NCBI GenBank assembly: GCA_965372135.1
Contig: CBDVBD010000001.1
Coordinates: 3,964 to 67,963, forward strand
Source of the DNA: an uncultured bacterium
GTDB lineage: Bacteria > Electryoneota > RPQS01 > CBDVBD01
Direction of reading: 5' to 3'
Length of the DNA: 64,000 nucleotides
The translations under genes were made by a program, and so were the position numbers. Shown piece by piece: positions 25,217 to 61,631 of the stretch. Position 1 is the first letter of the stretch, and the number at the start of each line of letters is the position of its first letter. The notes below the pieces were generated by a model, which had not been told where the DNA came from, did no database searches, and worked only from the letters and a program-made list of their open reading frames with translations.

Positions 25217-26560
25217 TCAGAAACGTATCGTAAATACTGTGTTTACACCAAGTACTGAACTGACGTTCATGGTGGCGCCGTGCAATCGCATGATTTGTTT
25301 TGACAAGCTTAACCCGATACCGGAACCCTCGGTTTTAGTGGTGAAGAATGGGATAAAGATTTTGTCCAGGACTTCCGCTTTTATGCCGTGTCCGTTATCT
25401 TCCACCTGGATCACCGGACACCCCCGTCCGTCGGTCCTGGCAATCATTTTGATGGTCGGATTGGGAGCGTTTTCCAGGGCTTCTACGGAATTTTTACAGA
25501 GGTTGATCAATACCTGTTCGATCATGTTGGGATCAGCGGTCAGTTCCAATGTTTCCGGGTCCACCGATACCTGGAGATCTATGGATTTTTGCCGGATTTG
25601 ATCCCCCATCAGGTTTCTTATTCGATTGAATAATTCTTCAATCAGGAATACTTCGTATTTCGGTTTGGGAATCCGGGTTAGTTTTCGGTAATCCTCCACG
25701 AAATGCAAAAGTCCATTACTGCGTTTTTCGATGGTTTTTACTGCGTTAACGATGTCATTGACAGCTTCATCCTCAGGATTGAATTTATCGGTATCAGCTG
25801 ATAACATTAATTTTGTTGTGGAGGCTAAGGAAGAGATGGGTGCGATGGAATTCATGATTTCGTGCGTTAAGGTACGGATAAGTGTCTGCCAGGCTTCCAT
25901 TTCCTTTTCTTCCAACTCCCGCTGGATGTTGGTCAACGACACCAAGGTAAAGGATTGCTGATGAGAGACGAATCCAGTGGCGTAAATCGACAATTGCAGC
26001 GATCGCTCTTCGTCCTGCAAGTTGATTTGTTCTTTCTCGCCGGGTTGGATATTTATAAGGGTGTCTGCCAGTTCCCGGCTGATGGGGGATAGCAGTTTGA
26101 TATTACGAAGGTTAGGGATTTTTAGCAGGCGTTTGGCGGCATTGTTGATCAACGTAACTTCCCCGTTCACGTCGTATGATATCAGACCCACGCCGACATG
26201 TTGGATAATGGTTTGAATGAAGCGATGATGCTCTTCCTTTTCCATCCGGATTCGCTTGAAGTTGTTCAAGACTTCGCCGAATGCATTGTGCAGGTCTTTG
26301 AATGTGGAACCTTTGGAAGTGCTGGCAAAGGGTTGCGAAAAGTCGGAATATTTTATTGATAACAGGAATCGTGTGACGTCGCGGTTGGTTTTTTCCACGT
26401 AGTGGAATAGTGCAAACACCTGATAAATAATGAGTACACCGACAATGAATACCGTGGCATACAGTTGTGTTTGGAATAGAAGATAGAGAAACAGGAATAT
26501 GGTGGCACCCAACAAAATCAGCCGCAAGGTGCAGTTTAGGCGGAACCGTTTAAAGATCAT
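25217..26560 (-). CDS. Sensor histidine kinase (2 TM, HisKA + HATPase_c)
   Basis: Two N-terminal TM helices. H-box LTHEIMNSIAPI. G-boxes EDNGHGI and GSGIGLSLSKQI. Overlaps the RR gene by 11 nt. Confidence 0.85.
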   Translation of the reverse strand: MIFKRFRLNCTLRLILLGATIFLFLYLLFQTQLYATVFIVGVLIIYQVFALFHYVEKTNRDVTRFLLSIKYSDFSQPFASTSKGSTFKDLHNAFGEVLNNFKRIRMEKEEHHRFIQTIIQHVGVGLISYDVNGEVTLINNAAKRLLKIPNLRNIKLLSPISRELADTLINIQPGEKEQINLQDEERSLQLSIYATGFVSHQQSFTLVSLTNIQRELEEKEMEAWQTLIRTLTHEIMNSIAPISSLASTTKLMLSADTDKFNPEDEAVNDIVNAVKTIEKRSNGLLHFVEDYRKLTRIPKPKYEVFLIEELFNRIRNLMGDQIRQKSIDLQVSVDPETLELTADPNMIEQVLINLCKNSVEALENAPNPTIKMIARTDGRGCPVIQVEDNGHGIKAEVLDKIFIPFFTTKTEGSGIGLSLSKQIMRLHGATMNVSSVLGVNTVFTIRF

Positions 26561-27926: not shown

Positions 27927-27962
27927 GAGATCAACCTTTTTATCAATCATCTGTTGTCTCGT

Positions 27963-28134: not shown

Positions 28135-28150
28135 TGTCCGATATCGGACA
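28135..28150. promoter_or_regulatory. Perfect 16-bp palindrome TGTCCGATATCGGACA (candidate enhancer/UAS for the NtrC-type activator)
   Basis: Lies about 210 bp upstream of the sigma-54 -24/-12 element, with AT-rich (IHF-like) DNA in between. Confidence 0.35.
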
Positions 28151-28360: not shown

Positions 28361-28375
28361 TGGCACCAATCTTGC
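28361..28375 (+). promoter_or_regulatory. Sigma-54 (RpoN) promoter TGGCAC-N5-TTGC
   Basis: Exact GG-N10-GC consensus (TTGGCACCAATCTTGCC). Predicted TSS near 28387. The first gene's ATG is at 28423. Confidence 0.6.
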
Positions 28376-28422
28376 CTAATATAATGAACATAGAATTGCT
28401 ATTTTCTGAGGAATGGAAGATC

Positions 28423-29676
28423 ATGGACCGTCAAATCAAGAAAAAGAAGTGGACACCAAAACGGATTGCTACGATGTCCTTAGCTGCCGTTTTTTTGGTA
28501 TTTGCATTGAAAGTCATTTTATTCGATACCAGGGACACCAAGCTGAATGTCAATGCCGAAAGGCTGTCTATTTCCACCGTTACAAAAGGACCATTTCAGG
28601 AATTTATCGCGGTGACCGGAACCTTGATTCCCATCAAGACCATCTATTTGGACGCCATCGAGGGGGGTAGGGTGGATTCGATATACCTGGAAGCTGGGAC
28701 CTATGTCAATAGAGGCGACAGTATTTTGAAATTGGTGAATACCAACCTGATGATGGATATTATGTACCGGGAAGCGGAGCTGTTCCAACAGAGCAATAAT
28801 CTGAGAAACACACGGCTTTTGATGGAGCAAAACCGTCTGAGAATCCAAGGTGAGATTCTGGAATTGGATTACCAGATTACCCAGCAGCGGCGTGTAGTGG
28901 AAAATAATGAGGAATTGAAAAAGAGGAATTTGATTGCCGATCAGGACTATGAGGAAGCATTGGATCAGTACCAGTATTTGATGAATACACGGGATCTGAC
29001 ATTGGTATCCCACCGGCAGGATTCGGTATTTCGGGAGGTGCAGGTTGAACAATTGGAGGCAGGGCTGGACCGGATGGAAGAAAACCTCGAATTTGTGAGA
29101 CAAAATGTGGAAAACTTGATTCTGAAGGCTCCCTTTTCCGGCCATCTGACGTCGTTGAATGCGGAGATCGGGGAATCAAAAGTCCGGGGAGAACGGTTGG
29201 GGCAGATCGATGTGTTGGACGGTTTCAAAGTGCGCGTGGCGGTGGATGAGCACTATATCACCCGGGTGAATATCGGGCTCAGAGGGGAATTTACCTTGGC
29301 GGATTCGATCTATCAATTGATAATCAAGAAAGTGTATCCGGAGGTGATTAACGGCAGGTTTGAAGTGAACATGGAATTTGTGGATCAGGAACCGGAGGAA
29401 GTCCGGCGCGGGCAATCGCTGCATATCCGGTTGGAATTAGGAGATTTGTCGGAAGCACTGCTTCTGGATCGCGGCGGATTTTACCAGAGCACCGGCGGGC
29501 AGTGGGTATATGTGTTGGACGAATCAGAACAGTTTGCGATAAAGCGCAAGATCAGGATCGGGCGGCAGAATCCGGAAGTGTTTGAGGTGTTGGAAGGGTT
29601 GGAACCGGGTGAGAAGGTGATAACCTCGTCTTATAGTAACTACGGAGATGTGGATAGATTAATGCTAAAACAGTAG
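28423..29676 (+). CDS. HlyD-family periplasmic adaptor (membrane fusion protein) of the ABC efflux system
   Basis: N-terminal TM anchor. Barrel-sandwich/biotinyl-like motif and long coiled-coil hairpin. Beta-barrel C-terminal region. Start ATG 28423 with GAGGAATGGAAG upstream. Confidence 0.8.
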   Translation: MDRQIKKKKWTPKRIATMSLAAVFLVFALKVILFDTRDTKLNVNAERLSISTVTKGPFQEFIAVTGTLIPIKTIYLDAIEGGRVDSIYLEAGTYVNRGDSILKLVNTNLMMDIMYREAELFQQSNNLRNTRLLMEQNRLRIQGEILELDYQITQQRRVVENNEELKKRNLIADQDYEEALDQYQYLMNTRDLTLVSHRQDSVFREVQVEQLEAGLDRMEENLEFVRQNVENLILKAPFSGHLTSLNAEIGESKVRGERLGQIDVLDGFKVRVAVDEHYITRVNIGLRGEFTLADSIYQLIIKKVYPEVINGRFEVNMEFVDQEPEEVRRGQSLHIRLELGDLSEALLLDRGGFYQSTGGQWVYVLDESEQFAIKRKIRIGRQNPEVFEVLEGLEPGEKVITSSYSNYGDVDRLMLKQ

Positions 29677-29695
29677 TAACAGAAAATCTTTTACA

Positions 29696-29734
29696 TGCTT
29701 TCGTGGTGCAGGGTGTCAACGAATCTTGATTCCT
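29696..29734 (+). other. Perfect 10-bp-stem hairpin (GTGCAGGGTG / CACCCTGCAC, 19-nt loop) in the adaptor-ATPase intergenic region
   Basis: Begins 20 nt after the adaptor stop. Followed by an A-run rather than a T-run, so it is not a canonical terminator. Confidence 0.4.
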
Positions 29735-29798
29735 CACCCTGCACAAAAACCGAATTCGAAACATAAAAAAATGTACAACATACAACATGGAGTCGAGA

Positions 29799-30488
29799 AT
29801 GATTAGGACCAAGAACCTCAAGAAAGGTTACACTACGGAAGAGGTGGAAACCACAGCGCTGGACAAGGTGAATGTGGAGATCAAAGAGGGTGAATTTGTT
29901 GCCATCATGGGTCCGTCGGGGTGTGGAAAATCCACCCTGCTGAACGTGATGGGGATGCTGGATAATCCTACGGAAGGGGAATATTATTTCCTGGGTAATG
30001 AGGTGTCCAAGTCCACGGAACGGCAGCGGGCGCAACTTAGGAAACGGAACATCGGGTTTGTGTTTCAGAGCTTTAACCTGATCGACGAATTGACCGTATT
30101 CGAAAATATCGAACTGCCGCTCTTGTATTTGGGGGTCTCATCCTCCGATCGCAAAACGCGGGTAGGTGAAGTGATGGAGCAGATGCAGATCACACCTCGG
30201 AAAAACCATTTTCCCCAGCAGCTATCCGGTGGTCAGCAGCAGCGTGTGGCGGTTGCGCGAGCGGTGATTGCCAAACCCAAGCTGATTCTGGCGGATGAGC
30301 CCACCGGGAACCTGGATTCCAGCCACGGCGATGAGGTAATGAAAAATCTAACCGCGTTGAACGAAACCGGCACCACCATCATCATGGTGACGCACTCACC
30401 AACCTATGCCGACTACGCACACCGCACCATTCATCTGTTTGACGGTCATGTGGTTACCGAAAATATCAGCGGGACGGTCAGTGTTTAA
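29799..30488 (+). CDS. ABC transporter ATP-binding protein (MacB/LolD-type stand-alone ATPase), copy 1
   Basis: Walker A GPSGCGKST, signature LSGGQQQRVAVARA, Walker B ILADEPTGNLD. ATG 29799 is preferred (GGAG 6 nt upstream). The ORF track starts at 29787. Confidence 0.85.
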   Translation: MIRTKNLKKGYTTEEVETTALDKVNVEIKEGEFVAIMGPSGCGKSTLLNVMGMLDNPTEGEYYFLGNEVSKSTERQRAQLRKRNIGFVFQSFNLIDELTVFENIELPLLYLGVSSSDRKTRVGEVMEQMQITPRKNHFPQQLSGGQQQRVAVARAVIAKPKLILADEPTGNLDSSHGDEVMKNLTALNETGTTIIMVTHSPTYADYAHRTIHLFDGHVVTENISGTVSV

Positions 30489-30567
30489 TGATCTCCTCAA
30501 CAACTGGTATTCAGAGAATCCGGCTGACGCATTAAAATATGAATGATCTAACATTAATGAGTTACCC

Positions 30568-33018: not shown

Positions 33019-33036
33019 CAAGGATTAGGAGTAACT

Positions 33037-35433: not shown

Positions 35434-35539
35434 ACATCGATCAGATACATCTAAGATAAACAAGGACATCGTCAGCACAAGTCCTGCTTCCGAGGTTGAA
35501 GAGCCGCTGGCGACTGTGGATCGTACCATTCCTAATGTG

Positions 35540-36320
35540 ACGTCCAATGATTACTCTCTTCAACCGGTTGTAATATATCTCCATTCCCACTTCTCCTTCG
35601 AAGGATCGGGTGGCAGTTTCGCATTCATTAACATCCTCTCAATGATTGCAGTTCTCATTTTGTTGATAGCCTGCTTCAACTTCATGAATCTTAAAACTGC
35701 CAGATCTGCCACCCGGTCCATAGAAGTGGGGCTTTATGAAAGTAATGGAGGTTTCTAAGGGCGCCTGAAGGGTCAACATCATCATTTTGTGAGGTTTTGT
35801 TATGTTTGGCACATTTTGGGAAATCGTTCGGCGGGATGTCGCGGATATCAGTGCGAATCTCGTGAGTAATCTTGCCGGCTTCATTGTCAGTATGGTGTGT
35901 TGTGTGTTGGTGTTTCTCTGTATTCAGAATAACCTGAATACGACTAACACCCATAGTGAATTGAATCCGAAACAACCCATGAACATAGAATACGACCGTG
36001 GAATGAAAGGCGTTTCTATTCACGGTACTTCGTCAATGGTGATACCGTCCATTGACGAAGGGTTTTGCTTGTGTGACATGTTTTCCTTTCCGTTGGTGAT
36101 GAATGTGCGGAATAATTCAATTTTTCAAGAACAGAGGGGCTTAATCACCCATCCGATGATTCAGCGACAACTGGACGGACAAAACCAACCGACACAACCT
36201 GAACACACAGACCAAATAAACTGTCCAACTAAACCATGGCGGGATGTTTCAAGGATCGATTATGGTCGAATGAACCATCATGTAAGATATAAACTACTGT
36301 CTAAGTTTCAAAGTAGTTAA
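35540..36320 (+). pseudogene. Decayed MacB/FtsX permease remnants: an internal TM2-region fragment followed by an N-terminal TM1-region fragment
   Basis: Fragment 1 (...SFAFINILSMIAVLILLIACFNFMNLKTARSATRSIEVGL..) matches the conserved FtsX block. Fragment 2 (...AGFIVSMVCCVLVFLCIQNNL... ...CDMFSFPLVMN..) resembles the permease N-terminus and FxFPLxxG block. Both carry stops and frame breaks. Confidence 0.5.
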
Positions 36321-36378
36321 TTGTCTGTCGAATATAAAGATCGACTGTGTTGTTTCTCTCAACAAAAAGGAGTTGCTC

Positions 36379-37047
36379 GTGATACGCTTAAAAGATGTAA
36401 CCAAATTCTACTCTGCTGGAACCATGAATACCTATGTCTTGCGTCACATAGATTTGGAAATCGAGGAAGGTGAATTTGTGACTATAATGGGACCATCCGG
36501 TGCCGGTAAAACTACTCTAATGAACATCATTGGTATGCTGGATTCCATGTCGGAAGGGGAATATTATTTCCTTGATCAGGAAGTGCACCGCCTCAACGAG
36601 AAAAAACGGGCTGCACTGTACAAGGAAAACATGGGATTCGTGTTTCAGAGCTACCATCTAATCGATGAACTCACGGTGTACGAAAACCTGGAAACCCCGC
36701 TTCTGTACAAGAAAATCAAGGGTGGTGAGCGCAAAAGCATGGTGTGTGATATTTTGGACCGGTTTCAGGTTGTGGGAAAGAAAAACCTATTTCCGAATCA
36801 GTTATCCGGCGGACAGCAGCAGCAAATCGGCGTAGCTCGGGCGATCATTACCAATCCAAATCTACTGTTAGCGGATGAGCCCACCGGGAACCTCCATTCT
36901 TCACAGGGGGAGGAAATCATGGATATGTTCACCCAGTTGAACAAGGACGGCACCACCATCATTCAGGTCACACACTCGGAAAAGAATGCCGCCTACGGCA
37001 ACCGGATTATTTACCTGAAAGACGGTTGGATTGTGGACAGTCTCTAA
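36379..37047 (+). CDS. ABC transporter ATP-binding protein (MacB/LolD-type), copy 2
   Basis: Walker A GPSGAGKTT, signature LSGGQQQQIGVARA, Walker B LLADEPTGNL. GTG start 36379 lies 6 nt after AAGGAG (the ORF track gave TTG 36373). Confidence 0.8.
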   Translation: MIRLKDVTKFYSAGTMNTYVLRHIDLEIEEGEFVTIMGPSGAGKTTLMNIIGMLDSMSEGEYYFLDQEVHRLNEKKRAALYKENMGFVFQSYHLIDELTVYENLETPLLYKKIKGGERKSMVCDILDRFQVVGKKNLFPNQLSGGQQQQIGVARAIITNPNLLLADEPTGNLHSSQGEEIMDMFTQLNKDGTTIIQVTHSEKNAAYGNRIIYLKDGWIVDSL

Positions 37048-37202
37048 TGAACTCATAATTATCCAACTATGGGAAGCCGCCCGGCTGCTGAAAACAGCAC
37101 CGATCAGTGACGCATTGATCTTGAACCAAATCGCCGAACAACAACTGGAACTACCACGTTCGTATTAATAATGTTAACAAAGACTTAACCTTGAGGGACA
37201 AT

Positions 37203-38441
37203 ATGAAGAGGATTACCGCAGCAAATATTTTAATTCTGTGCTTGGTTGCAATTAGCACCAGCGTATGGGCAGTGATCGACAACCAAGGCGTTATCGCAAA
37301 ATACAACACGGTTGCCCTTGGAAGCCAATATAAAACATCCGATTCCGAAGCCGATGCGGTTGCACTCGAACGCATCATAACTGTTGGCAGAACTGACAAC
37401 CGGATTATGGAGTATTTGGATTATTTGTGCAACGAAATCGGTGGGCGTCCCGCTGGGTCTGACAATGTACATACCGCAAGTGAATGGGCACGTGACAAGT
37501 TTATCAGCTTTGGCTTATCCAATGTACATATTGAGGAAAGCTCGCATACAGGTGGGGGTGGTTGTGGATCGTGTTCTGGGGATTCAAATATTGTTCGGAA
37601 GATCTTCTGGGCGATAAAGTCTCGGTTTACAAAGAACAAAACGATTCCAATTTATAATGTTGTAGCGGACATTCCAGGCACACAGTACCCGGATGAGTAT
37701 GTGATAGTCGGTGCGCACATCGATTCCGATGATGCCGGAACCGGAGCATCCGACAACGGCACCGGAGTTGCCGCCACATTGGAAGCGGCGCGGCTGTTGA
37801 TGGAATCAGGCGCTAAACCACGTCGCACCATAAGATTCATCCTATTTGATGGGGAGGAGATTGGAAAAATTGGGTCCCAAGCTTACGTATCTAATCATCC
37901 GGAACTAACGTCGAAAATCACTGCAATGCTGAATATGGATCAGGGTAGTGATCATATCTCGGGAATCCATGCCACCGAAGCTATGATGGGTGATTTCCGG
38001 AATGTATTTGCACCGATCGAATCACTAAATCAGGAAATGCCTTTCAAGATTGAGAAAGTCGATCACTTGTCGGATATTATCAAGGAATGCTGTGGAAGTG
38101 CTGGCACCAGCGATCACGGATCGTTTTTTGAAGCCGGTGTGCCGGCGTTTTCTTGGCTGCAGCAGGGAAAGAATCCGGTTCGATACCAGCCGCATACGAA
38201 ACATGATACTTACGACAAAGTAAATCCCGACCATCAGGAACATTCGACAATGGTAGTTGCGATTGGCGCTTTGGGAATTGCTAATCTAGACCATATGTTG
38301 TACCGGTCACACTCAACATCGTTGGTCGATCAGGATTCACCAAACCAACCCAAAATCATCAATTGGTGCTACAAATTGTTAATGAGTTATAAGCATATAG
38401 TGAAGCAAGTTCGGCAGGACAGCACACCTGCTATTGAGTGA
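37203..38441 (+). CDS. M28-family zinc peptidase (aminopeptidase-like), secreted
   Basis: Signal peptide. Metal-ligand blocks VIVGAHIDSDDAGTGASDNGTGVAATLEAARLL and ILFDGEEIG. ATG 37203 is preferred over TTG 37191. Confidence 0.75.
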   Translation: MKRITAANILILCLVAISTSVWAVIDNQGVIAKYNTVALGSQYKTSDSEADAVALERIITVGRTDNRIMEYLDYLCNEIGGRPAGSDNVHTASEWARDKFISFGLSNVHIEESSHTGGGGCGSCSGDSNIVRKIFWAIKSRFTKNKTIPIYNVVADIPGTQYPDEYVIVGAHIDSDDAGTGASDNGTGVAATLEAARLLMESGAKPRRTIRFILFDGEEIGKIGSQAYVSNHPELTSKITAMLNMDQGSDHISGIHATEAMMGDFRNVFAPIESLNQEMPFKIEKVDHLSDIIKECCGSAGTSDHGSFFEAGVPAFSWLQQGKNPVRYQPHTKHDTYDKVNPDHQEHSTMVVAIGALGIANLDHMLYRSHSTSLVDQDSPNQPKIINWCYKLLMSYKHIVKQVRQDSTPAIE

Positions 38442-38500
38442 TAAAGGATAGCTATGGTTAAACTGACATCAAATCGTAACCTGATAGATGAATAGTATTC

Positions 38501-38534
38501 GCTGTCATATTAGCCTCATTATGACAGCATTTTG
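38501..38534 (+). terminator. Candidate terminator/attenuator after the M28 gene
   Basis: 9-bp stem GCTGTCATA/TATGACAGC with a 10-nt loop, then ATTTTG. Confidence 0.3.
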
Positions 38535-38640
38535 ATAAATAGTGAAAGAACATACACAGCACACTTAATGATAACAAAATAATGAGCTTCCGACATGTCA
38601 TCATTAGACTATATTTCAATCTAATTGCTGGGAGGGTATC

Positions 38641-41034
38641 CTGTTTCATAACTACTTAAAAGTGGCTATTCGTAATCTCCTGCGACACAAAGGATACTCC
38701 CTTATCAACATCATAGGTTTGGCGGTGGGGATGGCATGCTGTATTCTGATAATGCTGTGGGTGATGGATGAGTTGAATTATGACCGATACCATGAAAATG
38801 CAAATAATATCTACCGGGTTATCGGAGAACGGCATTACAGTGATCGAAAGGCTGAATTTGCCACCATACCTCCACAGGCATGTGATCTGTTGTTGAATGA
38901 GTTCCCAGAAGTGGTGAAAGCCACCCGGTATTTTGAAACCCGAGGCAGTCATGGAACCTGGCTGATACGACACGGTGATTTAGCTTATTTAGAAAAAACC
39001 AGTGGCGCGGCTGACCCGGCGTTCTTCGAGATATTCGATTTTCCATTCATTTCTGGAGATCCGGCAACCTGTTTAGATGATCCTTTTAACATAGTTATGA
39101 CTGAAACCACCGCAAAAAAGTATTTCAGTGAGGATGAAGCGGTGGGGCAAACTTTGCGGTTGGATGATACTTGGGATTTTATAATTACTGCTGTGATCGA
39201 AGATATACCGCGTAATTCTCATTTTCAATTCGATTTTCTGATGCCGAACACCATTTTCAATGAAATCGGTGGTGACCTGGAAAATTGGAATTTCTGGACA
39301 TTTCATACCTATGTGCTTTTGGATGAACAGGCAAATTATCGTGATGTCAGTGCGAAAATCGGTGATTTGATTGTCCGTCATAACGAGCAGTTACCCAGCA
39401 GGTTGTTTTTGCAGCCGTTAACGGATATCCACCTCAAATCGAAATTCGAAAGAGATGTGGTCGGTCTTAGTGACATTACTTATGTCTATTTATTGTCAGC
39501 TATTGCGGTATTCATTTTACTGATAGCTTGCATCAATTTCATGAACTTAACCACCGCCATTGCCGGCAAGCGAGCCAAGGAAGTCGGTTTACGAAAAGTA
39601 GTGGGCGCAGTTAGGGGCAATTTGATCCGGCAATTTTTAGGGGAGTCTATTCTCCTATCATTTATTGCTCTGGTTGTCGCATTAGCCATAGTGGAAGCCT
39701 TGCTTCCCGTGTTTAACGATCTATTAGCAAAAGAATTAACACTTCATTTATTAGATTCAGGAAAGGTTTTCTTATGGTTACTGGCGATAGCGATACTTAC
39801 AGGAATCGTGTCGGGTAGTTATCCGGCTTTCTTCCTGGCATCTTTTCAACCGGCTACTGTATTGAAAGGCTCCCAGAAAAGCAAGAGTGGTAAAACCTGG
39901 TTCCGAAGAATAACGGTTATTTTTCAGTTCACACTGTCAGTGGCTTTGATAATCTCCACCCTGGTGGTGTACAATCAACTGAAATATATTAGCAACAAAA
40001 AATTGGGATTTGATAAGGACCATCTTGTATATATCAATTGTGCCGGGCAGATGGGCGTTCCACCAAAATTTGATTCAGTGAAACAAGAGTTCCTGAAGAT
40101 TCCAGGTGCCAAGGGTGTAACAAGTATTCTCCAGTTACCGCCGGATATTTATTATGTAGCGAATAACTTTGGATGGCAAGGAAAAGATCCTGAAAACACA
40201 GAATATATACGTTTTGCTAGTACCAGTGATGATTTTACAGATGTATTTCAAATTCCAGTAACCCGGGGCAGATCGTTTTCCCGGGATTTTCTTGGTGATT
40301 CCGCATCGGTGTTGATTAACGAAACGGCTGCAAAAGTGATGGGATATGATAATCCCTTGGGAAAACAAATAACCGCACCCAATATTCAAACTCAGAAAAT
40401 AAATACGTTTACCATTGTCGGTGTTCTGGAGGATTTCCATTTCCGATCATTGCATGAACAAGTTGCACCCCTGGTGGTATTCCGGAACACAAATTTCTTC
40501 AATTACATAGTAGTTCGAATCATCACGGAAGATATAACCGGAACCATGGCGCAACTTCGGAAAACCACCAAGGAAGTTCTGCCAGAATTTCCTCTGGATT
40601 TCCGCTTTTTGGATGAGGACTATGACATATTGTACCGAACCGAATACAGGCTGGGCAGCCTGGCACAATATTCCACCCTGTTGGCGATTTTGATATCCTG
40701 TCTGGGTTTGTTCGGTTTGGCATCCTACACCGTTGAACAACGCACCAAAGAAATCGGGGTCCGCAAAGTATTGGGTGCATCAGTGTCCAATATCGTGCTG
40801 CACCTATCGAAGGAATTTGCATTTTGGGTAATTATCGCCAACATTATCGCTTGGCCGGTTGCCTATTACGCGATGAATCGGTGGCTGGAAAATTTCGCCT
40901 ACCGGATCAATGTAGAGTGGTGGACCTTTGTCACTGCAGGTGTGCTTGCCTTTGTGATTGCGTTCATCACTGTGAGTTTTCAGGCTATCAAAGCAGCGAC
41001 CACTAATCCCGTGGATGCTTTGAGATACGAGTAG
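38641..41034 (+). CDS. MacB/FtsX-type ABC permease (paralog 3); start codon uncertain
   Basis: The ORF track starts at GTG 38662 (MAIRNLLRHK). The conserved N-terminal block NYLKVAIRNL is encoded upstream in the same frame (LFHNYLKV), so the true start is probably a non-ATG codon (CTG 38641, 4 nt after GGAGGG), or the gene has lost its start. Ends NPVDALRYE. Confidence 0.65.
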   Translation: MFHNYLKVAIRNLLRHKGYSLINIIGLAVGMACCILIMLWVMDELNYDRYHENANNIYRVIGERHYSDRKAEFATIPPQACDLLLNEFPEVVKATRYFETRGSHGTWLIRHGDLAYLEKTSGAADPAFFEIFDFPFISGDPATCLDDPFNIVMTETTAKKYFSEDEAVGQTLRLDDTWDFIITAVIEDIPRNSHFQFDFLMPNTIFNEIGGDLENWNFWTFHTYVLLDEQANYRDVSAKIGDLIVRHNEQLPSRLFLQPLTDIHLKSKFERDVVGLSDITYVYLLSAIAVFILLIACINFMNLTTAIAGKRAKEVGLRKVVGAVRGNLIRQFLGESILLSFIALVVALAIVEALLPVFNDLLAKELTLHLLDSGKVFLWLLAIAILTGIVSGSYPAFFLASFQPATVLKGSQKSKSGKTWFRRITVIFQFTLSVALIISTLVVYNQLKYISNKKLGFDKDHLVYINCAGQMGVPPKFDSVKQEFLKIPGAKGVTSILQLPPDIYYVANNFGWQGKDPENTEYIRFASTSDDFTDVFQIPVTRGRSFSRDFLGDSASVLINETAAKVMGYDNPLGKQITAPNIQTQKINTFTIVGVLEDFHFRSLHEQVAPLVVFRNTNFFNYIVVRIITEDITGTMAQLRKTTKEVLPEFPLDFRFLDEDYDILYRTEYRLGSLAQYSTLLAILISCLGLFGLASYTVEQRTKEIGVRKVLGASVSNIVLHLSKEFAFWVIIANIIAWPVAYYAMNRWLENFAYRINVEWWTFVTAGVLAFVIAFITVSFQAIKAATTNPVDALRYE

Positions 41035-41046
41035 AAAAGGACTAAC

Positions 41047-43464: not shown

Positions 43465-43474
43465 GAGAGGAAAT

Positions 43475-45826: not shown

Positions 45827-45887
45827 ATAAAATCAAATACATAAAATACCACCTTGATAAATGCACTGAGGAGATTGGAATACTTAA

Positions 45888-48161
45888 GTGACCTTTTGGA
45901 ACAAATTCGGATTCTCTTTATTATTAGCACTTTGCTCCTGCCATTTAGCCTTGGCGGATAATCCCATCCGTGGATTTGTAGTGGATGCCACCAGCGCTGA
46001 ACCACTACCGGTAGCAAATGTAGTAATCGAGGGAACCCAACGGGGAGCATTCACCAACCTGGACGGCTATTTCGTGATCGATCACCTGGAACCCGGTGAG
46101 TATACCCTTCACTTGTCACATCTTGGATACCAAACCACCGTGGTGAAGATCGTGGTGTCTGAAACGCTGATGGAACCGATAACCTTCGAATTAACCCCCA
46201 CAGCCATCGAACTGGAAGCAGCAGAAGTGACTGTGAAAAGAAGGGACGTGCGCAGAGCCCCCACTGTTTCCAGTGTGCCGTTAACCGGAAGTACTCTTCG
46301 AAGATTACCGTTGCTGGCGGTGGAATCTGATGTACTCCGAGCCGTGCAAGCCATTCCCGGCGTCAAAACCTCATCAGAGCTGTCCAGTAGTATCTACGTA
46401 CGGGGTGGAAGTCCTGACCAGACCTTGATACTCTTGGACCACAATGTGATCTACAATCCCAATCACCTGTTCGGAATCTTCAGCACCTTCAATGCCGATG
46501 TCACCAAACGTGTCAATTTGATGAAAGGCGGTTTCCCCGCTGAATATGGAGGGCGATCCGGGAGCGTCTTGGAGATAGTCACCAACGAAGGAAATCGTAA
46601 AGAATTCACAGGTCAAGCGTCGGTGGGTATTGTGTCCGCTCGGTTGGCACTGGAAGGTCCTCTGCCCGGGAACAAAGGATCCTACGCCATTTCCGGGCGA
46701 CGGAGCTACGTGGATCCTCTGGTGAAGTTCCTGCTTGCGGAAGGCATCGATTTGGACATTCCGGACTATTTCTTCTATGACACCAATGGCAAATTAAACA
46801 TTGACTTATCCAAAAAAAGCACCCTAAACTTATCCGGATATTGGGGCAAGGATGACCTCTATGTAAATTATGGTCCGGAGAGCAATCAGACTGATGTAAA
46901 TATGCAATGGGGTAACGGCTTATTCACCAGTCGTTTCCGTCATGTCCTGGGTCGGAATTTGTTCCTTTCTGCCAATGCTGCCGTCAGTCGTTATCGTTCG
47001 GAATCCAGCGAAGAAAATCATGGTGTGTTCGTATCGGAAACCGATGACACACTTCTGGACTATCTGTTAAAAGTCGATTTGGAATTTTTGGGCAACGACG
47101 ACCACCGCATAAAGACCGGTGTGGCGGTGAACCGCTACGATTTCACCTTGAATGCAAGAGAACTCGGTGTGACGGAAGCACAGGTCGATGAAATCAGCCA
47201 TTTGTATTCGGCATACATTCAAGATGGCTGGCGAATCAGTGCACATTTCGAAATGAAGCCCGGGTTGCGGGTATATTATTATGATAAAGGGAATTACATC
47301 GAATTCGACCCCCGCTTAGCTTGTGTCTATCATTACACTACCGACATGCGCTTCAAAATCGGAGGAGGACGCTACACCCAGTTTATAAATCTCCTCAATT
47401 TCGGTGAGGGGATGAGCAACTACGACATCTGGGTGCCGGTGGATGAATCCCTGGGACCGTCCCGTTCCGATCAATTGGTGGTAGGATTTGAGTGGGAACC
47501 TTCGAACAAGTATGAATTCACCGCGGAAGCCTACTACACCGACATGAATAATATCGTCGAATATAACCGGGTTCGCACCAAAGAAGTCGAAACTGCCAGT
47601 GATGTGTTCCTCCCAGGTGGTGACGGTTATGCCTATGGTATGGAATGGATGTTCCAACGCACTGCTGGTCGTCTGACCGGATGGTTGGGTTATTCACTCG
47701 CTTGGACTAAACGACGGTTCGAAGGAACATACCTGAACAATGGTAACTGGTACTACCCCATCTGGGACCGTCGACACGATTTCATTGCGGTGGCAAATTA
47801 TATCCTGAATCAACGCTGGGAGTTTTCCGGAAGTTGGAGGTTTCACACTGGGCAAGGATATACTCAAGAACTGGGAATATATCCCAGCCGATATACCAGC
47901 TATGGATATGACCGCCAAATTTTATACGGTGACCTGAACAATTACCGGTTTCCGACGGATCATCGGTTGGACATCGCCGCGGCATTCCATCACGAATTCT
48001 GGACCGGACATCCCGCGACAGTGCGGTTTGGATTATACAATGTCTATAGCCGCCGGAGTTACTGGCGACGTTCGGTAAGCACCAAAAAGAATCCTGTGGA
48101 AATTGAGGATGTCAGACTGCTGCCGATTCTTCCTATGTTCAATTATGAAGTGAGGTTCTAA
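45888..48161 (+). CDS. TonB-dependent-receptor-like outer-membrane protein (CarboxypepD_reg domain + plug + barrel)
   Basis: Signal peptide. CarboxypepD_reg-like block IRGFVVDATSAEPLPVANVVIEGTQRGAFTNLDGYFVI. Plug motifs (SSIYVRGGSPDQTLILLDHNVIYNPNHLFG). C-terminal aromatic residue (..YEVRF). Confidence 0.7.
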   Translation: MTFWNKFGFSLLLALCSCHLALADNPIRGFVVDATSAEPLPVANVVIEGTQRGAFTNLDGYFVIDHLEPGEYTLHLSHLGYQTTVVKIVVSETLMEPITFELTPTAIELEAAEVTVKRRDVRRAPTVSSVPLTGSTLRRLPLLAVESDVLRAVQAIPGVKTSSELSSSIYVRGGSPDQTLILLDHNVIYNPNHLFGIFSTFNADVTKRVNLMKGGFPAEYGGRSGSVLEIVTNEGNRKEFTGQASVGIVSARLALEGPLPGNKGSYAISGRRSYVDPLVKFLLAEGIDLDIPDYFFYDTNGKLNIDLSKKSTLNLSGYWGKDDLYVNYGPESNQTDVNMQWGNGLFTSRFRHVLGRNLFLSANAAVSRYRSESSEENHGVFVSETDDTLLDYLLKVDLEFLGNDDHRIKTGVAVNRYDFTLNARELGVTEAQVDEISHLYSAYIQDGWRISAHFEMKPGLRVYYYDKGNYIEFDPRLACVYHYTTDMRFKIGGGRYTQFINLLNFGEGMSNYDIWVPVDESLGPSRSDQLVVGFEWEPSNKYEFTAEAYYTDMNNIVEYNRVRTKEVETASDVFLPGGDGYAYGMEWMFQRTAGRLTGWLGYSLAWTKRRFEGTYLNNGNWYYPIWDRRHDFIAVANYILNQRWEFSGSWRFHTGQGYTQELGIYPSRYTSYGYDRQILYGDLNNYRFPTDHRLDIAAAFHHEFWTGHPATVRFGLYNVYSRRSYWRRSVSTKKNPVEIEDVRLLPILPMFNYEVRF

Positions 48162-49076
48162 ATGAGCGATTTCTTGACTTTCGCAGAACCTGCACGTTCA
48201 TATAGAACCCTGTGGTTGCTGATTCCGGGCTTAATCTTAATTCTGTTAGTATCCAGTTGCGAAAAAAATCCCACCGAAGTGGAAGAATACATTCGCGAAC
48301 CGGTTCTGTCCGCGTTTATCCATAACGGGAAAAGGGTGGATTACATCTTTCTTGACCGGGTGGCGTCGTTGGATGCGGTCTATCATCCGGATGATTGGTT
48401 CATTTTCGGTGCAGACGTAAAGATGTTTCCGGTTGATAATCCAGCAGCCGGAGATACTATTCATTTCCGGGAATATTATCGGTTTGTCGAGGGATGGGTG
48501 TACACTCCGGACCCGGGGAACCATTTGTACCCCCAGGCGTTCGTGCGCTATCGGATCGAAGCACGAAAACCCGACGAGAACATTTACCTGTGGGCGGAAA
48601 CGATGATGCCCGATACCTTTTCTATCACTGTGACAAACCATGAAGTTATCAACGACACTATCTGGATTCCGCTGGATTGGAACGATCCTCCCTTAGAACT
48701 GATTTGGACAAAAGCAGATTCCGCCGGAGGGTACGTTCTCCGAACCATGTGCCAAAATATTGACCCCTTGACACAAAATGTCTTGCCGTGTATTCCACTT
48801 GATCCAAATTACGAAATTGGGGAAGAACCTGACCTTCAATATCTCGAGGTGGTTGGAAGAAGTGCACGTAGCGTGACAGTACCTTGGTTGGCAGTCAATT
48901 ATACAGATCATAACTTGATCGAAATCCAAGCCACCAGCTTGGATTACATCGAATATTTGGAGTCGCTGTTTAATTTTCAGGAATCCAATCCTATATCCAA
49001 CGTCCATGGCGGGCGTGGTGTGTTTGCCGGATTCTCAACCGACCATATCATACTAACAATGCAATCGGTCAAGTAG
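48162..49076 (+). CDS. Lipoprotein partner of the TonB-dependent-like barrel (DUF4249-like context)
   Basis: ATG directly after the upstream stop. Lipobox LLVSSC. Adjacency to a CarboxypepD_reg barrel is typical of DUF4249 lipoproteins. The domain call itself is low-confidence. Confidence 0.4.
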   Translation: MSDFLTFAEPARSYRTLWLLIPGLILILLVSSCEKNPTEVEEYIREPVLSAFIHNGKRVDYIFLDRVASLDAVYHPDDWFIFGADVKMFPVDNPAAGDTIHFREYYRFVEGWVYTPDPGNHLYPQAFVRYRIEARKPDENIYLWAETMMPDTFSITVTNHEVINDTIWIPLDWNDPPLELIWTKADSAGGYVLRTMCQNIDPLTQNVLPCIPLDPNYEIGEEPDLQYLEVVGRSARSVTVPWLAVNYTDHNLIEIQATSLDYIEYLESLFNFQESNPISNVHGGRGVFAGFSTDHIILTMQSVK

Positions 49077-49107
49077 AGACCAATTGCCACAAAGAAAGAG
49101 GGATGAT

Positions 49108-51510
49108 ATGCTGAGAAACTATCTGAAAATTGCTTTTCGCAATATCTTAAGGCACAAAACCTATTCCTTTATTAATGTTGCAGGTTTAGCCATCGGAATG
49201 GCGTGTTGCATCCTGATCCTGCTCTGGGTGAACCACGAACTGAGCTACGACAAGTTCCACGAAAATGCAAACCGAATTTACCGCCTTTGCCTGGATACCA
49301 ATATCGGCGGCAGCGAGCTGCAGGCACCCGTGAGCTGCGCACCGGCACCCCTCGTGATGGTGCAAGAATTCCCGGAAGTCGAAGATGCGGTACGAGTGCA
49401 ACCCTTAGGAAAAGTCCTGGTAGAGACCGGATCCAAAAAGTTCTATGAGGAATATATCTTCTACTCTGATAATTCAGTGTTCAACGTGTTTAGCTTCCCG
49501 TTATTGCAGGGCGATCCCCAGTCAGCGCTGGTCACAGCTTACTCAATCGTGCTGACTGAAACCATGGCGGCGAAGTATTTCGGAGATGAAAATCCTATCG
49601 GTAAGACCTTAACAATCAACAACGAAAATGAGTTCACCATCACTGGAATAATGCAAGATGTTCCATACAATTCGCACTTGAATTTCAATATGTTATGTTC
49701 TTTTGAGACATTATATGCCGAGAACAGAGAGTATCTGGAAATATGGCTTGAGTTCTCCTATTGGAGTTATCTGTTGCTGGCAGAAAACACTAATATCTTA
49801 GCGCTGGAGCAGAAATTTCCCGAATTAATAGACCAGAATATGGGTGACGAACTGGGAAAAATCGGAGGAACTTTAGATTTTTTTCTACAACCTCTCACTG
49901 ATATCTATTTATATTCAAAAATGGATTACGAAATTTCTACTCTGGGAGATATTACAAATGTTTACCTCTTCGCCGGTATCGCTCTGTTTGTCCTGCTAAT
50001 CGCTTGTTTCAATTTCATAAATCTATCCACTGCCCGATCGGCAATTCGTGCACGGGAAGTCGGAATACGAAAAACCTTTGGCGCAGTTCGTGGCAAACTA
50101 ATCGCACAGTTCCTGGGCGAATCTATTATCTATAGCTTGCTGTCCTTGATAATAGCCGTCATCCTGTTGGAAATGTTCGTACCGGTATTCAACTCCATGA
50201 CCGAAGGAAAGCTGGATGTCAATCTATTCCAAACACCATGGCTGATCCCGGGATTGTTGGGGCTGGCAGTTTTGGTGGGATTGATCGCCGGTAGTTACCC
50301 TGCGTTCTTTTTGTCTTCCTTCAAGCCGGTTAAGGTGTTCAAAGGAAATCTGAAATTGGGTGCTGCAAATTCCCGGTTCCGAAGCATTTTAGTGGTATCT
50401 CAATTCGTGATTTCCATCGTTCTGATCATCGGCACAATAACCATATATCAACAATTACGGTACATGAAAACTAAGAAACTGGGCTTCAATAAAGAACAGG
50501 TTCTTGTAATCCCCACTGTCAGTGATGTAGAGGATCAGTCCAAATCCGCCCTAAAACACGAATTGGCGAGCGTGAATGGAGTAGTGAACGTTGCTCTGAC
50601 CAGCTTCATCCCTGGTGAATTCACCAGTAAAAGCGTATTTATTCCGGAGGATTTTTCCGAAGATCAAACTCAGATGATCGCCCATTTCTATGCCGATGAA
50701 AATTTTCTACCAGTATTGGGTGTGGAAATGCATGCTGGACGGAATTTCTCTCTCGAATTCGCCACTGATACCGCGGAAGCGATAATCATTAACCAAACCG
50801 CTGTCCGGAAATTTGGCTGGGACGATCCGGTAGGGAAGACTATAAAAACTCCGGATATTGAAAATGGGGAAATTATTTGGAAACCCAATACCGTCATCGG
50901 TGTGGTGAAGGATTTTCATCTCACATCCTTGCACAAAGAAATCGAACCCCTAATCATCCGCAATATCTGTGATGCCAGCATGATGTGCCTGCGTGTTTCC
51001 ACCGACCAAATCCAACACACATTGGATCTCCTGCAAGGTAAGTGGAACGACATTTTCCCGCAGCAACCCTTTGATTACTATTTCCTCGATGAATCTTATG
51101 ACAACCTGTACCGTGCCGAGCAGAGGTTGGGCGATATAGCGTTATCCTTTTGTCTGCTGGCAATTTTCGTAGGCTGCCTTGGATTATTCGGGTTGTCTGC
51201 GTTTACCGCCGAACAGCGCACCAAGGAAATTGGTATTCGGAAAGTGTTGGGCGCTTCTGTGTCAGGCATGGTCTTAATGTTATCGAAGGAATTCACTAAA
51301 TGGGTGGTGATAGCCAATGTTATTGCCTTTCCCATAGCCTATTTCGTGATGCGCCACTGGTTAGAGAATTTCGCATATCGCATCGATGTAGGTTGGACTA
51401 CGTTCGCGTTGGCTGCGATTCTGGCACTGATTATTGCCGTGATTACTGTCAGCTTCCAAGCTGTCAAAGCCGCGGTTGCTAATCCAATTAACTCCTTGCG
51501 ATATGAGTAA
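49108..51510 (+). CDS. MacB/FtsX-type ABC permease (paralog 6)
   Basis: ATG 49108 (MLRNYLKIAFRNILRHK) with AGAGGGATGA upstream. The ORF track started at 49084. Ends NPINSLRYE. Confidence 0.8.
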   Translation: MLRNYLKIAFRNILRHKTYSFINVAGLAIGMACCILILLWVNHELSYDKFHENANRIYRLCLDTNIGGSELQAPVSCAPAPLVMVQEFPEVEDAVRVQPLGKVLVETGSKKFYEEYIFYSDNSVFNVFSFPLLQGDPQSALVTAYSIVLTETMAAKYFGDENPIGKTLTINNENEFTITGIMQDVPYNSHLNFNMLCSFETLYAENREYLEIWLEFSYWSYLLLAENTNILALEQKFPELIDQNMGDELGKIGGTLDFFLQPLTDIYLYSKMDYEISTLGDITNVYLFAGIALFVLLIACFNFINLSTARSAIRAREVGIRKTFGAVRGKLIAQFLGESIIYSLLSLIIAVILLEMFVPVFNSMTEGKLDVNLFQTPWLIPGLLGLAVLVGLIAGSYPAFFLSSFKPVKVFKGNLKLGAANSRFRSILVVSQFVISIVLIIGTITIYQQLRYMKTKKLGFNKEQVLVIPTVSDVEDQSKSALKHELASVNGVVNVALTSFIPGEFTSKSVFIPEDFSEDQTQMIAHFYADENFLPVLGVEMHAGRNFSLEFATDTAEAIIINQTAVRKFGWDDPVGKTIKTPDIENGEIIWKPNTVIGVVKDFHLTSLHKEIEPLIIRNICDASMMCLRVSTDQIQHTLDLLQGKWNDIFPQQPFDYYFLDESYDNLYRAEQRLGDIALSFCLLAIFVGCLGLFGLSAFTAEQRTKEIGIRKVLGASVSGMVLMLSKEFTKWVVIANVIAFPIAYFVMRHWLENFAYRIDVGWTTFALAAILALIIAVITVSFQAVKAAVANPINSLRYE

Positions 51511-51521
51511 TAGGGAGAAAA

Positions 51522-53858: not shown

Positions 53859-53882
53859 CTTTAACATGTTTTTGAGGATATC

Positions 53883-56267: not shown

Positions 56268-56285
56268 AGGTATAAGGAGTCGAGC

Positions 56286-58661: not shown

Positions 58662-58697
58662 TCTCGAACATTGGGGATAAAATTCTAAGGTTTAACC

Positions 58698-61112: not shown

Positions 61113-61133
61113 ACTTAATTAAAGGTGAACATC

Positions 61134-61412
61134 ATGAGAGAAGTCGTCATTCAAATTCCTACAATCGAAGCGGAACAGAATATTGAAATCGATGTCAAAA
61201 TCAACGGCAGAAAACGCACCATCAAGTACCGGGTAGAAATAATAGACTGGGAAGGCGATGAGCCTACCACTGAAACCAGACTGGAAACTATCCGTAGCGT
61301 AATCCGGGAACGTGACCGCGACTGGGAACTGATCCAAATCGGTGCACCAATTAAGGACAGTGTCCCGATTATGTTCCGGAAACGAATGAAAAACAACCAT
61401 CACAATAATTAA
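61134..61412 (+). CDS. Small hypothetical protein (92 aa, charged, no TM)
   Basis: ATG 61134 preceded by AAAGGTG. No recognisable motif. Confidence 0.35.
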   Translation: MREVVIQIPTIEAEQNIEIDVKINGRKRTIKYRVEIIDWEGDEPTTETRLETIRSVIRERDRDWELIQIGAPIKDSVPIMFRKRMKNNHHNN

Positions 61413-61424
61413 TTGGCATTATGT

Positions 61425-61466
61425 GCCACCGTAACCGATTCCGTGGATTCCCTAAGATACGAATAA
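61425..61466 (+). pseudogene. Fossil 3' end of an eleventh FtsX permease (13 codons ...ATVTDSVDSLRYE* with stop)
   Basis: VDSLRYE-stop is identical to the paralog C-termini. Nucleotide similarity to CCGGTGGATTCACTGAGATATGAATAA. No upstream permease body. Confidence 0.5.
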
Positions 61467-61511
61467 AATATGAATAATAACGAAATAGCCTGATCTGTAA
61501 GGTCGCAGAAA

Positions 61512-61548
61512 AATCCCGTGCCGGATGTTCGGCAGGGGATTTTAATTT
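61512..61548 (+). terminator. Intrinsic terminator at the end of the permease array
   Basis: A-run, then an 11/12-bp stem AATCCCGTGCCG/CGGCAGGGGATT with a 6-nt loop, then TTTAATTT. Confidence 0.45.
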
Positions 61549-61631
61549 CCGCCCCTTTTTACTTGATTTTCTCGTCTGATACCTTATATTATTGTTACCA
61601 TGACTTCTTAATCCAAATTCGAGGTGTGACA

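Follow-up and report, generated by a model that had tools for sequence, protein, structure and literature searches.

A 64,000-nucleotide (nt) stretch of DNA from an uncultured bacterium of the Electryoneota (contig CBDVBD010000001.1 of assembly GCA_965372135.1; hereafter the window) contains, on its forward strand between 28.4 and 61.6 kb, an array of ten intact permease genes of the MacB/FtsX superfamily (P1 to P10), which is accompanied by only two stand-alone ATP-binding cassette (ABC) ATPases, A1 and A2, and by a single HlyD-type periplasmic adaptor. This composition had been proposed in a reading of the letters alone (the sequence-only reading), and all ten same-strand permease frames lie where that reading had placed them. 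The explanation that fits best, and which we hold with somewhat better than even confidence, is a MacAB-type system in which the ten diverged, fused permeases share one adaptor and the A1/A2 pair, with TolC encoded elsewhere. The genes follow each other in the order adaptor, A1, P1, P2, a 939-nt gap, A2, an M28-family peptidase gene, P3, P4, P5, a receptor gene, a DUF4249 gene, P6 to P10, a 92-residue open reading frame (ORF) and a hairpin.

The permeases and their divergence

The permeases are approx. 780 to 816 amino acids long and are all encoded on the plus strand: P1 (30568..33018, 816 residues), P2 (33037..35433, 798), P3 (38641..41034 from a CTG at 38641, or 38662..41034 from a GTG), P4 (41047..43464, 805), P5 (43475..45826, 783), P6 (49108..51510, 800 residues from the ATG at 49108, in a frame that is open from a TTG at 49084), P7 (51522..53858, 778), P8 (53883..56267, 794), P9 (56286..58661, 791) and P10 (58698..61112, 804). 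All ten exceed the Pfam cut-offs for MacB_PCD (PF12704; 104-131 bits versus 27) and FtsX (PF02687; 83-110 bits versus 25.5). FtsX is present in two stretches in every one of them, as the sequence-only reading had seen, and MacB_PCD in two stretches in nine, with one above threshold in P5. The motifs described earlier for the two ends, M-x-x-N-Y-x-K at the N-terminus and N-P-x-x-[AS]-L-R-Y-E at the C-terminus, are real. With FtsX domains, a MacB_PCD domain between the first and second transmembrane (TM) helix of each unit, coupling helices between TM2 and TM3, and the corresponding fold, the ten ORFs belong to the type VII ABC or MacB-FtsX permease superfamily.

Eight TM segments are recognized both by hydropathy along the alignment and in an AlphaFold2 (AF2) model of P2, which was built on 64 sequences (pLDDT 82.7, pTM 0.74). 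The N-terminal half of the model comprises an amphipathic helix, TM1, periplasmic domain 1 (residues 57-267), TM2, a coupling helix (313-321), TM3 and TM4. It is joined by a disordered linker of approx. 20 residues between TM4 and TM5 to the C-terminal half, which consists of TM5, periplasmic domain 2 (463-665), TM6, a second coupling helix (703-711), TM7, TM8 and a C-terminal helix. According to this model the permease is predicted to consist of two MacB-like 4-TM units fused directly to each other, i.e. to be a pseudo-dimer. Having eight TM helices and a pair each of periplasmic domains and coupling helices, such a pseudo-dimer would therefore need two ATPase subunits. The 1:1 ratio of permease to ATPase is thus not the measure to apply, as the sequence-only reading had done, and it is also far from the 167 permeases and 21 ATPases that are encoded in 40 related loci (see below).

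A Foldseek comparison of the P2 model with the PDB returned E. coli YbbP as the top match (9GE6, E = 6e-19, 12-14% sequence identity), followed by MacB, Spr0695, the periplasmic domain of a P. gingivalis permease (3IS6), LolE/LolC, BceB, YtrF and HrtB; the probability was 1.00 for YbbP, MacB, LolE, BceB and HrtB. The periplasmic domains align with those of the P. gingivalis permease and MacB at target-normalised TM-scores of 0.69-0.80, and a sequence profile of the ten paralogs matches the PDB sequences of MacB, the P. gingivalis domain, Spr0695, YtrF and LolC. No solved structure of the 8-TM form is found among the profile and Foldseek matches in the PDB. ABC3 porters have been described with four, eight or ten TM segments, and 8-TM versions are hence known (PMC3654945), whereas a structural review of the MacB family depicts the 4-TM and 10-TM forms only (PMC5985334). 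Many close homologues from other organisms (P0129, P0132, P0141 and others) are extended at the N-terminus by some 73 residues that all ten window paralogs lack.

The paralogs are strongly diverged, with pairwise identities of 35-45% at the protein level and 47-54% in codon-aligned DNA. As the sequence-only reading had supposed, the divergence is concentrated in the periplasmic domains, where mean pairwise identity is 31.5%, versus 49.6% in the TM helices and 58.9% in the cytoplasmic parts. The extremes are the loop with coupling helix 2 (86.7%), the C-terminal helix (74.4%) and the loop with coupling helix 1 (61.9%) on one side, and the periplasmic domains (30-32%) on the other. Divergence is expressed here as amino acid identity per domain, as synonymous sites are saturated (paralogs approx. 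50% identical in DNA, orthologues 56-64% in protein). The cytoplasmic motifs are also near-invariant in 54 homologues from other organisms.

Near-identity of the paralogs, which the sequence-only reading had named as the sign of an assembly artefact, is not observed. That the repeats are collapsed or expanded copies has nothing in its favour beyond the repetitive look of the region, and we give it practically no credence: DNA identity between pairs is 47-54%, the sole highly similar stretch covers approx. 200 nt, and a protein identical to P2 is present in public data on a 73-kb contig. Divergence of this degree between the copies rules out a repeat collapse or expansion, and the artefact was rejected. 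The similar stretch is formed by the 3' ends of P9 and P10 (58360-58540 and 60810-60990), where the last 100 or so residues are 85-92% identical and the DNA 87-97% over approx. 200 nt; in the remainder, with 10-48% protein identity, the two are as diverged as any other pair. This tract has the signature of a local gene conversion. Two further signatures follow the position in the array. The C-termini of P1 to P5, which precede the receptor gene, end in ALRYE and those of P6 to P10 in SLRYE, and the coupling-helix-1 motif RAKEVGLRKVVG is identical in P3, P4 and P5, which suggests either local homogenisation or two ancestral sub-arrays.

The closest related array, a metagenome locus (L001), encodes at least eight permeases of the family, including a 57% relative of P2. 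Four of its permeases are orthologues of P9 (56%), P6 (64%), P2 (56%) and P8 (57%), each being at most 44% identical to any other window paralog, and they stand in another gene order than in the window. The paralog lineages are therefore older than the divergence of the two organisms, and the arrays have been rearranged over time.

The array also contains the remains of permease genes. The short spacers between permease genes that the sequence-only reading had reported hold within the runs P1-P2, P3-P5 and P6-P10 (10-36 nt), but the array as a whole is interrupted by a 939-nt pseudogene stretch, by A2 and the M28 gene, and by the receptor/DUF4249 pair. Within the 939 nt lie two permease pseudogene fragments on the plus strand, one (35444..35749; hmmsearch E = 5e-19, repeat families D6 and D7) matching positions 229-321 of the paralog profile, i.e. 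the end of the first periplasmic domain, TM2 and coupling helix 1, and the other (35802..36068; E = 1e-6) matching the N-terminal positions 1-89. A relic permease 3' end (61429..61466, plus strand; repeat family D11), which in translation ends in VDSLRYE followed by a stop and is 74% identical to the 3' end of P7, follows a small ORF of 92 residues (61134..61412, plus strand) that starts 21 nt past P10 and has no match to a Pfam family. The fragments are indicative of an ongoing loss of copies. P3 itself has neither ATG, GTG nor TTG at the position of the conserved N-terminus, where the codons read ATC CTG TTT CAT AAC TAC (38638-38662). A GGGAGG lies 5-6 nt upstream of this non-canonical start region and the first canonical start is the GTG at 38662, so that P3 would either start from a non-canonical codon or be seven residues shorter. 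The two fragments, the relic 3' end and the start of P3, as well as the M28 peptidase and a second terminator-like hairpin described below, had been missed in the sequence-only reading.

Such remains could mean that the array is mainly evolutionary surplus, namely a birth-and-death family with one or two copies that cooperate with the ATPases, the majority being redundant or idle 'orphans'. Besides the two fragments and the relic, the missing canonical start codon of P3, the shuffled gene order relative to L001 and the very name 'orphan' permeases, which the literature gives to the related ADOP family, would agree with this. However, ten ORFs of about 800 codons have stayed open at approx. 50% DNA divergence with all invariant motifs kept, and four of the paralogs have clear orthologues in another organism; both point to long-term purifying selection on separate lineages and therefore weaken the surplus explanation. 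The comparable cluster in Psychroflexus torquis has moreover been reported to be highly translated (PMC3914696). We consequently consider surplus improbable.

Related loci, the two ATPases and the outer-membrane component

The profile of the ten paralogs was searched against 1.84 billion representatives, clustered at 50% identity, and matched 56,751 clusters at E <= 1e-30; a scan of one genome per species gave at least 585 confirmed matches. Among the matches listed are members of the Chitinophagaceae, Mucilaginibacter, Spirosoma, Dyadobacter, Flavobacteriaceae, Saprospiraceae and Ignavibacteria, and also Melioribacter, KSB1, Latescibacterota, Aminicenantes, Zixiibacteriota, Calditrichaceae and Rhodothermales. 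Gene content was compared in 40 genome loci with a length of 20 kb or more, whose ORFs were classed by profiles made from the window genes; these loci were chosen as the best matches to P2, and the numbers describe the family rather than an unbiased sample. They encode 167 full-length permeases, 21 MacB-type ATPases and 10 adaptors. This comparison of copy number, which the sequence-only reading had proposed, shows that multi-permease arrays are common, with at least four permeases in 21 of the 40 loci and at least six in 14. In several loci, eight or nine permeases take up the entire length, for example in those of Spirosoma sp. KNUC1025 (L023), Persicitalea (L048) and a Flavobacteriaceae bacterium (L061). 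The layout of the window array is thus ordinary for its family and not special, and an excess of permeases over ATPases is the family norm.

A module in which a divergent kinase and a sigma-54 regulator are followed by adaptor, ATPase and permease genes recurs in nine related loci (L005, L014, L021, L039, L047, L051, L053, L077 and L080) and is represented in Ignavibacteria, Chitinophagaceae, Mucilaginibacter, Hyunsoonleella, Saprospiraceae, Melioribacter and Calditrichaceae. In the window, the adaptor (28423..29676, plus strand) is a membrane fusion protein of 417 amino acids with one N-terminal TM anchor, which is matched by HlyD_3 in Pfam and by RND_mfp in NCBIfam (112.8 bits; cut-off 94.9). 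Its ORF is open from a TTG at 28360, but the ATG at 28423 is probably the start because the TTG overlaps the promoter. A1 (29787..30488, plus strand; Walker A GPSGCGKST, ABC_tran 127 bits) and A2 (36373..37047, plus strand; Walker A GPSGAGKTT, ABC_tran) are 55% identical (123 of 224 residues).

Ten of the related loci contain two ATPases (L005, L016, L018, L024, L039, L047, L051, L058, L077 and L078), and in all ten these are one A1-like and one A2-like protein, the type calls being separated by 50-135 bits. A1 follows the adaptor gene, and A2 either adjoins A1 or comes after one to four permeases. The most compact locus (L039) reads adaptor, A1, one permease, A2 and then a gene for a 479-residue protein of the OEP/TolC family; the locus of Hyunsoonleella pacifica (L047) reads adaptor, A1, three permeases, A2, TolC. 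One motor composed of A1 and A2 for all permeases is suggested because each type occurs once in all ten loci and because L039 holds both with a single permease, and the 1:1:1 ratio in L039 would fit a heterodimer. The combinatorial use of the two ATPases that the sequence-only reading had put forward is less likely than such a fixed pair. In L078, a 799-residue frame (15421-17817) scores 245 bits against the A2-type ATPase but also has a weak match of 25.5 bits to TolC, and may be a fusion or a frame artefact.

Alternatively, A1 and A2 could be homodimeric motors, each with its own subset of permeases, e.g. A1 for P1-P2 and A2 for P3-P10. Walker A, Walker B, signature and H-loop are canonical and intact in both ATPases, A2 is encoded past P1-P2 and ahead of P3-P10, the coupling-helix-1 motif is shared by P3-P5, and the known type VII systems MacB, LolD and YbbA have homodimeric ATPases (PMC12646458). 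On the other hand, the one-to-one occurrence of the two types in all ten two-ATPase loci, with both genes often adjacent ahead of any permease (L005, L024, L058, L077), is not what separate motors would lead one to expect, and neither is the presence of both types beside the single permease of L039. We regard separate motors as unlikely.

A TolC-family gene directly follows A2 in L039, L047, L054 and L071, and relatives of the array encode a complete tripartite set. Up to A2 the window has the same order as this compact core (adaptor, A1, P1, P2, two decayed copies, A2), but an M28 gene sits in the slot of TolC and eight more permeases come after it. The absence of a TolC-like gene that the sequence-only reading had noted applies to the 64-kb window, in which neither Pfam (OEP/TolC, among the ORFs tested) nor tblastn with two TolC proteins from related loci gave a match. 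That reading had seen a TonB-dependent barrel in place of TolC. The barrel is present, in a TonB-dependent-receptor-like outer-membrane protein with CarboxypepD_reg, Plug and barrel parts and a C-terminal Phe (45888..48161, plus strand; Pfam), and is directly followed by a DUF4249 protein (48162..49076, plus strand; 34.7 bits) whose signal and lipobox (LLVSSC) predict a lipoprotein. Its role as a TolC substitute was set aside, since compact relatives have TolC after A2 and the barrel is not conserved in the module. The receptor/DUF4249 pair is embedded among permeases in the same manner only in the nearest relative, L001 (12461-15640). L002 has a receptor at a like position, and two other loci have a receptor homologue alone next to one permease. 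No relatives were detected when genomes were scanned with the receptor protein as a single-copy marker.

The M28-family metallopeptidase after A2 (37203..38441, plus strand; Peptidase_M28, 132.9 bits) is predicted to be exported by an N-terminal signal or anchor. A second M28-like exported protein of more than 789 amino acids starts just past the array and runs off the window end (61632..64000); it is recognized by sequence motifs and lies outside the Pfam scan. The two peptidase-like proteins thereby flank the second part of the array. They could be the partners of permeases that act as mechanotransducers rather than exporters and activate or feed periplasmic hydrolases, comparable to FtsEX-EnvC and YbbAP-TesA; type VII ABC systems with hydrolase partners are known (PMC12646458), and YbbP is the best full-length structural match. 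Yet the first gene of the operon encodes a membrane-fusion adaptor and relatives have TolC, both hallmarks of tripartite efflux. M28 genes occur in just one of the 40 related loci and are not part of the conserved module, and ten permeases and two peptidases allow no simple pairing. A hydrolase-activating function consequently receives little weight here.

Promoter, regulators and transcript boundaries

The array is preceded by a sigma-54 promoter, TGGCACCAATCTTGC (28361..28375, plus strand), which matches the consensus of the -24/-12 elements (TGGCAC-N5-TTGC) exactly and is the sole exact match in the window, where 0.13 would be expected by chance. The promoter had been predicted in the sequence-only reading, and an activator gene is indeed present. 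Approximately 410 bp away, a divergent gene (26550..27950, minus strand) encodes an NtrC-type sigma-54-dependent response regulator with receiver, AAA+ and HTH_8 domains (Sigma54_activat 219.6 bits, Response_reg and HTH_8 in Pfam), and a consensus promoter is thus combined with a nearby enhancer-binding protein. A perfect 16-bp palindrome found in a repeat scan, TGTCCGATATCGGACA (28135..28150, repeat family I4, approx. 225 bp upstream of the promoter), is a candidate binding site for the activator. A histidine kinase (25217..26560, minus strand; HATPase_c and PAS_8) is likewise divergent. Judged from hydropathy, it has two N-terminal TM helices with a loop of approx. five residues in between, and hence no periplasmic sensor domain. 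Homologues of the kinase are found at an equivalent divergent position in about ten related loci, and the regulator is likewise divergent in relatives. Sigma-54-like sites are present upstream of the adaptor gene in the window and in five of 12 related loci, at a background of 0.12 per region. FtsX-like permease genes (COG0577) of Bacteroidia and further classes were also found to be preceded by sigma-54 promoters in an in-silico survey (PMC12316311).

The sequence-only reading took the array for one transcript with a terminator only at 61.5 kb. An intrinsic-terminator-like hairpin followed by a T-run does close the array there (61509..61558, hairpin 61509-61543, plus strand; RNAfold -25.2 kcal/mol), but a second terminator-like hairpin with a 9-bp stem, followed by AUUUUGAU, is located after the M28 gene (38501..38528, plus strand; -12.9 kcal/mol). 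It is a possible internal transcript boundary, and because of it a single 33-kb transcript is not assured. A third stable hairpin with a GC-rich 10-bp stem lies between the adaptor and A1 genes (29706..29744, plus strand; -20.4 kcal/mol) and is followed by an A-rich, not T-rich, sequence. In scans for sigma-70-type promoters and for terminators, the numbers inside coding sequence were close to, or moderately higher than, those expected from shuffling, and Bacteroidota-type promoters are outside the coverage of the promoter tool. Rfam identified no RNA families in the window.

Another sigma-54 response regulator is encoded 14 kb upstream of the array, ahead of a histidine kinase with a PDZ domain (10686-14506, plus strand), with no obvious target operon. 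The other neighbours (381-9168 and 21896-25012) are unrelated to the array and include an AIR-synthase-related protein, a short-chain dehydrogenase, a B12-binding radical-SAM enzyme, an AMP-binding enzyme, a C10 cysteine peptidase, an LVIVD-repeat protein (17009-18379) and a GH38 alpha-mannosidase; several neighbouring ORFs have no Pfam match. A link between the array and the upstream radical-SAM, AMP-ligase and C10-peptidase genes was set aside, as these are at least 20 kb away with unrelated genes in between.

Named relatives and a proposed mechanism

Among named families, the permeases resemble most closely the 'acidobacterial duplicated orphan permeases' (ADOP, TIGR03434), which share the MacB_PCD-FtsX-MacB_PCD-FtsX architecture of about 800 amino acids. 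ADOP is the best NCBIfam match, end to end on a profile of 803 positions, with 289-320 bits in the five paralogs scanned (289 bits for P1) versus a cut-off of 622.3; because these scores stay well below the curated cut-off, the window permeases appear to be a sister group of ADOP and not members. Both are large paralogous families, mostly without adjacent ATPase genes. ADOP is acidobacterial, whereas the relatives found for the window permeases come from the FCB group (KSB1, Bacteroidota, Ignavibacteria) and from some phyla besides, the Acidobacteria not being among them. Unlike ADOP, the window array has an adaptor and two ATPases in cis. Both ATPase genes lie inside the array, but only P1 directly follows one of them; A2 is separated from P2 by the 939-nt remnants and from P3 by the M28 gene.

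A layout with ten paralogs has already been published for another bacterium. Genomic island 43 of Psychroflexus torquis, a Bacteroidota genome, contains a highly translated 42-kb cluster consisting mostly of ADOP genes, with ten paralogs and other transporter genes (PMC3914696), among them some for ATP-binding transporters; the authors called the cluster intriguing and assigned no role to it. The two clusters differ in organism and gene order, and proteomic evidence of high expression is available on the Psychroflexus side. The portion of the paper considered here does not mention a sigma-54 regulator, a receptor/DUF4249 pair or a pattern of two ATPase types (PMC3914696).

The best functionally named match for the adaptor, for both ATPases and, after ADOP, for the permeases is DarBCD. 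It comprises the same trio, namely the duplicated permease DarB (NF038008, a profile of 777 positions), the adaptor DarC (NF038010) and the separate ATPase DarD (NF038007). The scores remain below the equivalog cut-offs, with 104-173 bits versus 700 for DarB, 205.9 versus 450 for DarC, and 279.8 (A1) and 251.5 (A2) versus 375 for DarD. DarBCD is a tripartite trans-envelope exporter, deletion of which lowers darobactin output 2-4 fold (PMC8442675). It has one permease and one ATPase gene, whereas the window has ten and two. Neither darA/darE neighbours nor a radical-SAM or precursor gene adjoin the array; the sole radical-SAM gene of the window (2318-3736) is 25 kb off, behind unrelated genes.

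With MacAB-TolC, the array has the permease fold and the adaptor family in common, and a likeness in mechanotransmission may be supposed. MacAB-TolC takes up its substrates from the periplasmic side and expels them through the adaptor and TolC (PMC5985334). MacB is a homodimer of 4-TM subunits with an N-terminally fused ATPase, while in the window two permease units are fused, the ATPases are separate and there are ten paralogs. The window permeases reach 35-45 bits with the MacB equivalog (cut-off 966). An adaptor of the HlyD/RND_mfp type is encoded with the transporter, as in MacAB systems, but no TolC in the 64 kb. In YbbAP, a single polypeptide with two MacB-like repeats and two periplasmic domains binds two ATPase subunits via two coupling helices (PMC12646458). 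In repeats, periplasmic domains and coupling helices YbbP is like the window permeases, but its TM helices number 10 in place of 8, its repeats are separated by two linking helices, and the NCBIfam score is 23.6 bits versus a cut-off of 999. YbbAP also works with a lipid hydrolase and, unlike the array, lacks an adaptor. BceAB-BceRS, finally, an antimicrobial-peptide resistance module, combines a type VII ABC permease with a kinase that lacks an extracellular sensor domain, as in the window. BceB differs by its 10 TM helices and one extracellular domain, and the system is found in Firmicutes, has no adaptor and uses a regulator of the OmpR type that is not sigma-54-dependent. The kinase of the window probably senses within the membrane or, more speculatively, via the transporter as BceS does. 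A literature search found no functional study of the duplicated MacB-type permease family, and ADOP is named in only one paper of the literature searched.

On this basis, the locus is proposed to encode a MacAB-type (type VII ABC) envelope export or efflux system that would be switched on by the two-component system and sigma-54, and whose inner-membrane permease would have been amplified into ten old, diverged paralogs. Each fused permease would stand in for a whole permease dimer, and the single adaptor and the A1/A2 pair would be common to all ten. A1 and A2 would act jointly, probably as a heterodimer, on the two coupling helices and not as alternative motors; the occurrence of each type once per two-ATPase locus and the gene content of L039 offer hints of a heterodimeric motor on a fused type VII permease. 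By analogy, mechanotransmission driven by ATP would run through the two MacB/LolD/FtsE-like ATPases of the array, ATP binding and hydrolysis moving the periplasmic domains as deduced from the structures of MacAB-TolC and YbbAP (PMC5985334, PMC12646458). The permeases would be interchangeable modules, whose diverged periplasmic domains would each pick out different substrates from the periplasm or from the outer leaflet of the inner membrane, likely peptides, toxins or amphiphilic compounds. Mechanotransmission would then pass these substrates via the adaptor to an outer-membrane duct of the TolC type, whose gene would lie in another part of the genome. In E. coli, TolC is likewise encoded elsewhere in the genome than macAB.

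Several observations weigh against this mechanism. The coupling helices are conserved throughout the family, as seen in an alignment of 64 sequences, and their conservation in the window fits shared ATPases but does not prove them. The fully canonical motifs of A1 and A2 would also allow each to form a homodimer that serves a subset of the permeases, and P3-P5, which follow A2, have an identical coupling-helix-1 motif. The counts refer to the 64-kb window, and any further MacB-type ATPases, adaptors or TolC elsewhere in the genome would be uncounted. The sigma-54 site is found upstream of the adaptor in only five of 12 related loci, and P3-P10 may be transcribed separately from another promoter, given the hairpin after the M28 gene. 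The pseudogene fragments, finally, show that permease copies decay.

It is possible, although on balance doubtful, that the system represents a multiplexed tripartite pump of the FCB group. One adaptor, an A1/A2 heterodimer and one duct would serve a library of substrate-tuned 8-TM permeases, and an intramembrane-sensing kinase would read transporter activity in a Bce-like manner and direct expression via sigma-54. In the literature searched, no ABC system is reported to combine a heterodimeric pair of ATPases on a fused type VII permease with subunit exchange among at least ten permeases.

The window locus is a further case of a known and widespread kind of array and has no unique feature. 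The family of duplicated MacB-type 'orphan' permeases is very large, and its arrays fill tens of kilobases in many genomes of soil and marine Bacteroidota, Ignavibacteria, KSB1 and their relatives. The two ATPase types, the minimal adaptor-A1-permease-A2-TolC operon and the sensor-less kinase with its sigma-54 regulator provide leads for work in culturable relatives that have the module, among them Hyunsoonleella pacifica SW033, Mucilaginibacter phyllosphaerae, Ginsengibacter hankyongi and Spirosoma spp. If one ATPase pair and one adaptor do serve many permeases, this would be a new route to substrate breadth in an ABC efflux pump, and the shared motor could account for the long-noted orphan status of the duplicated permeases.

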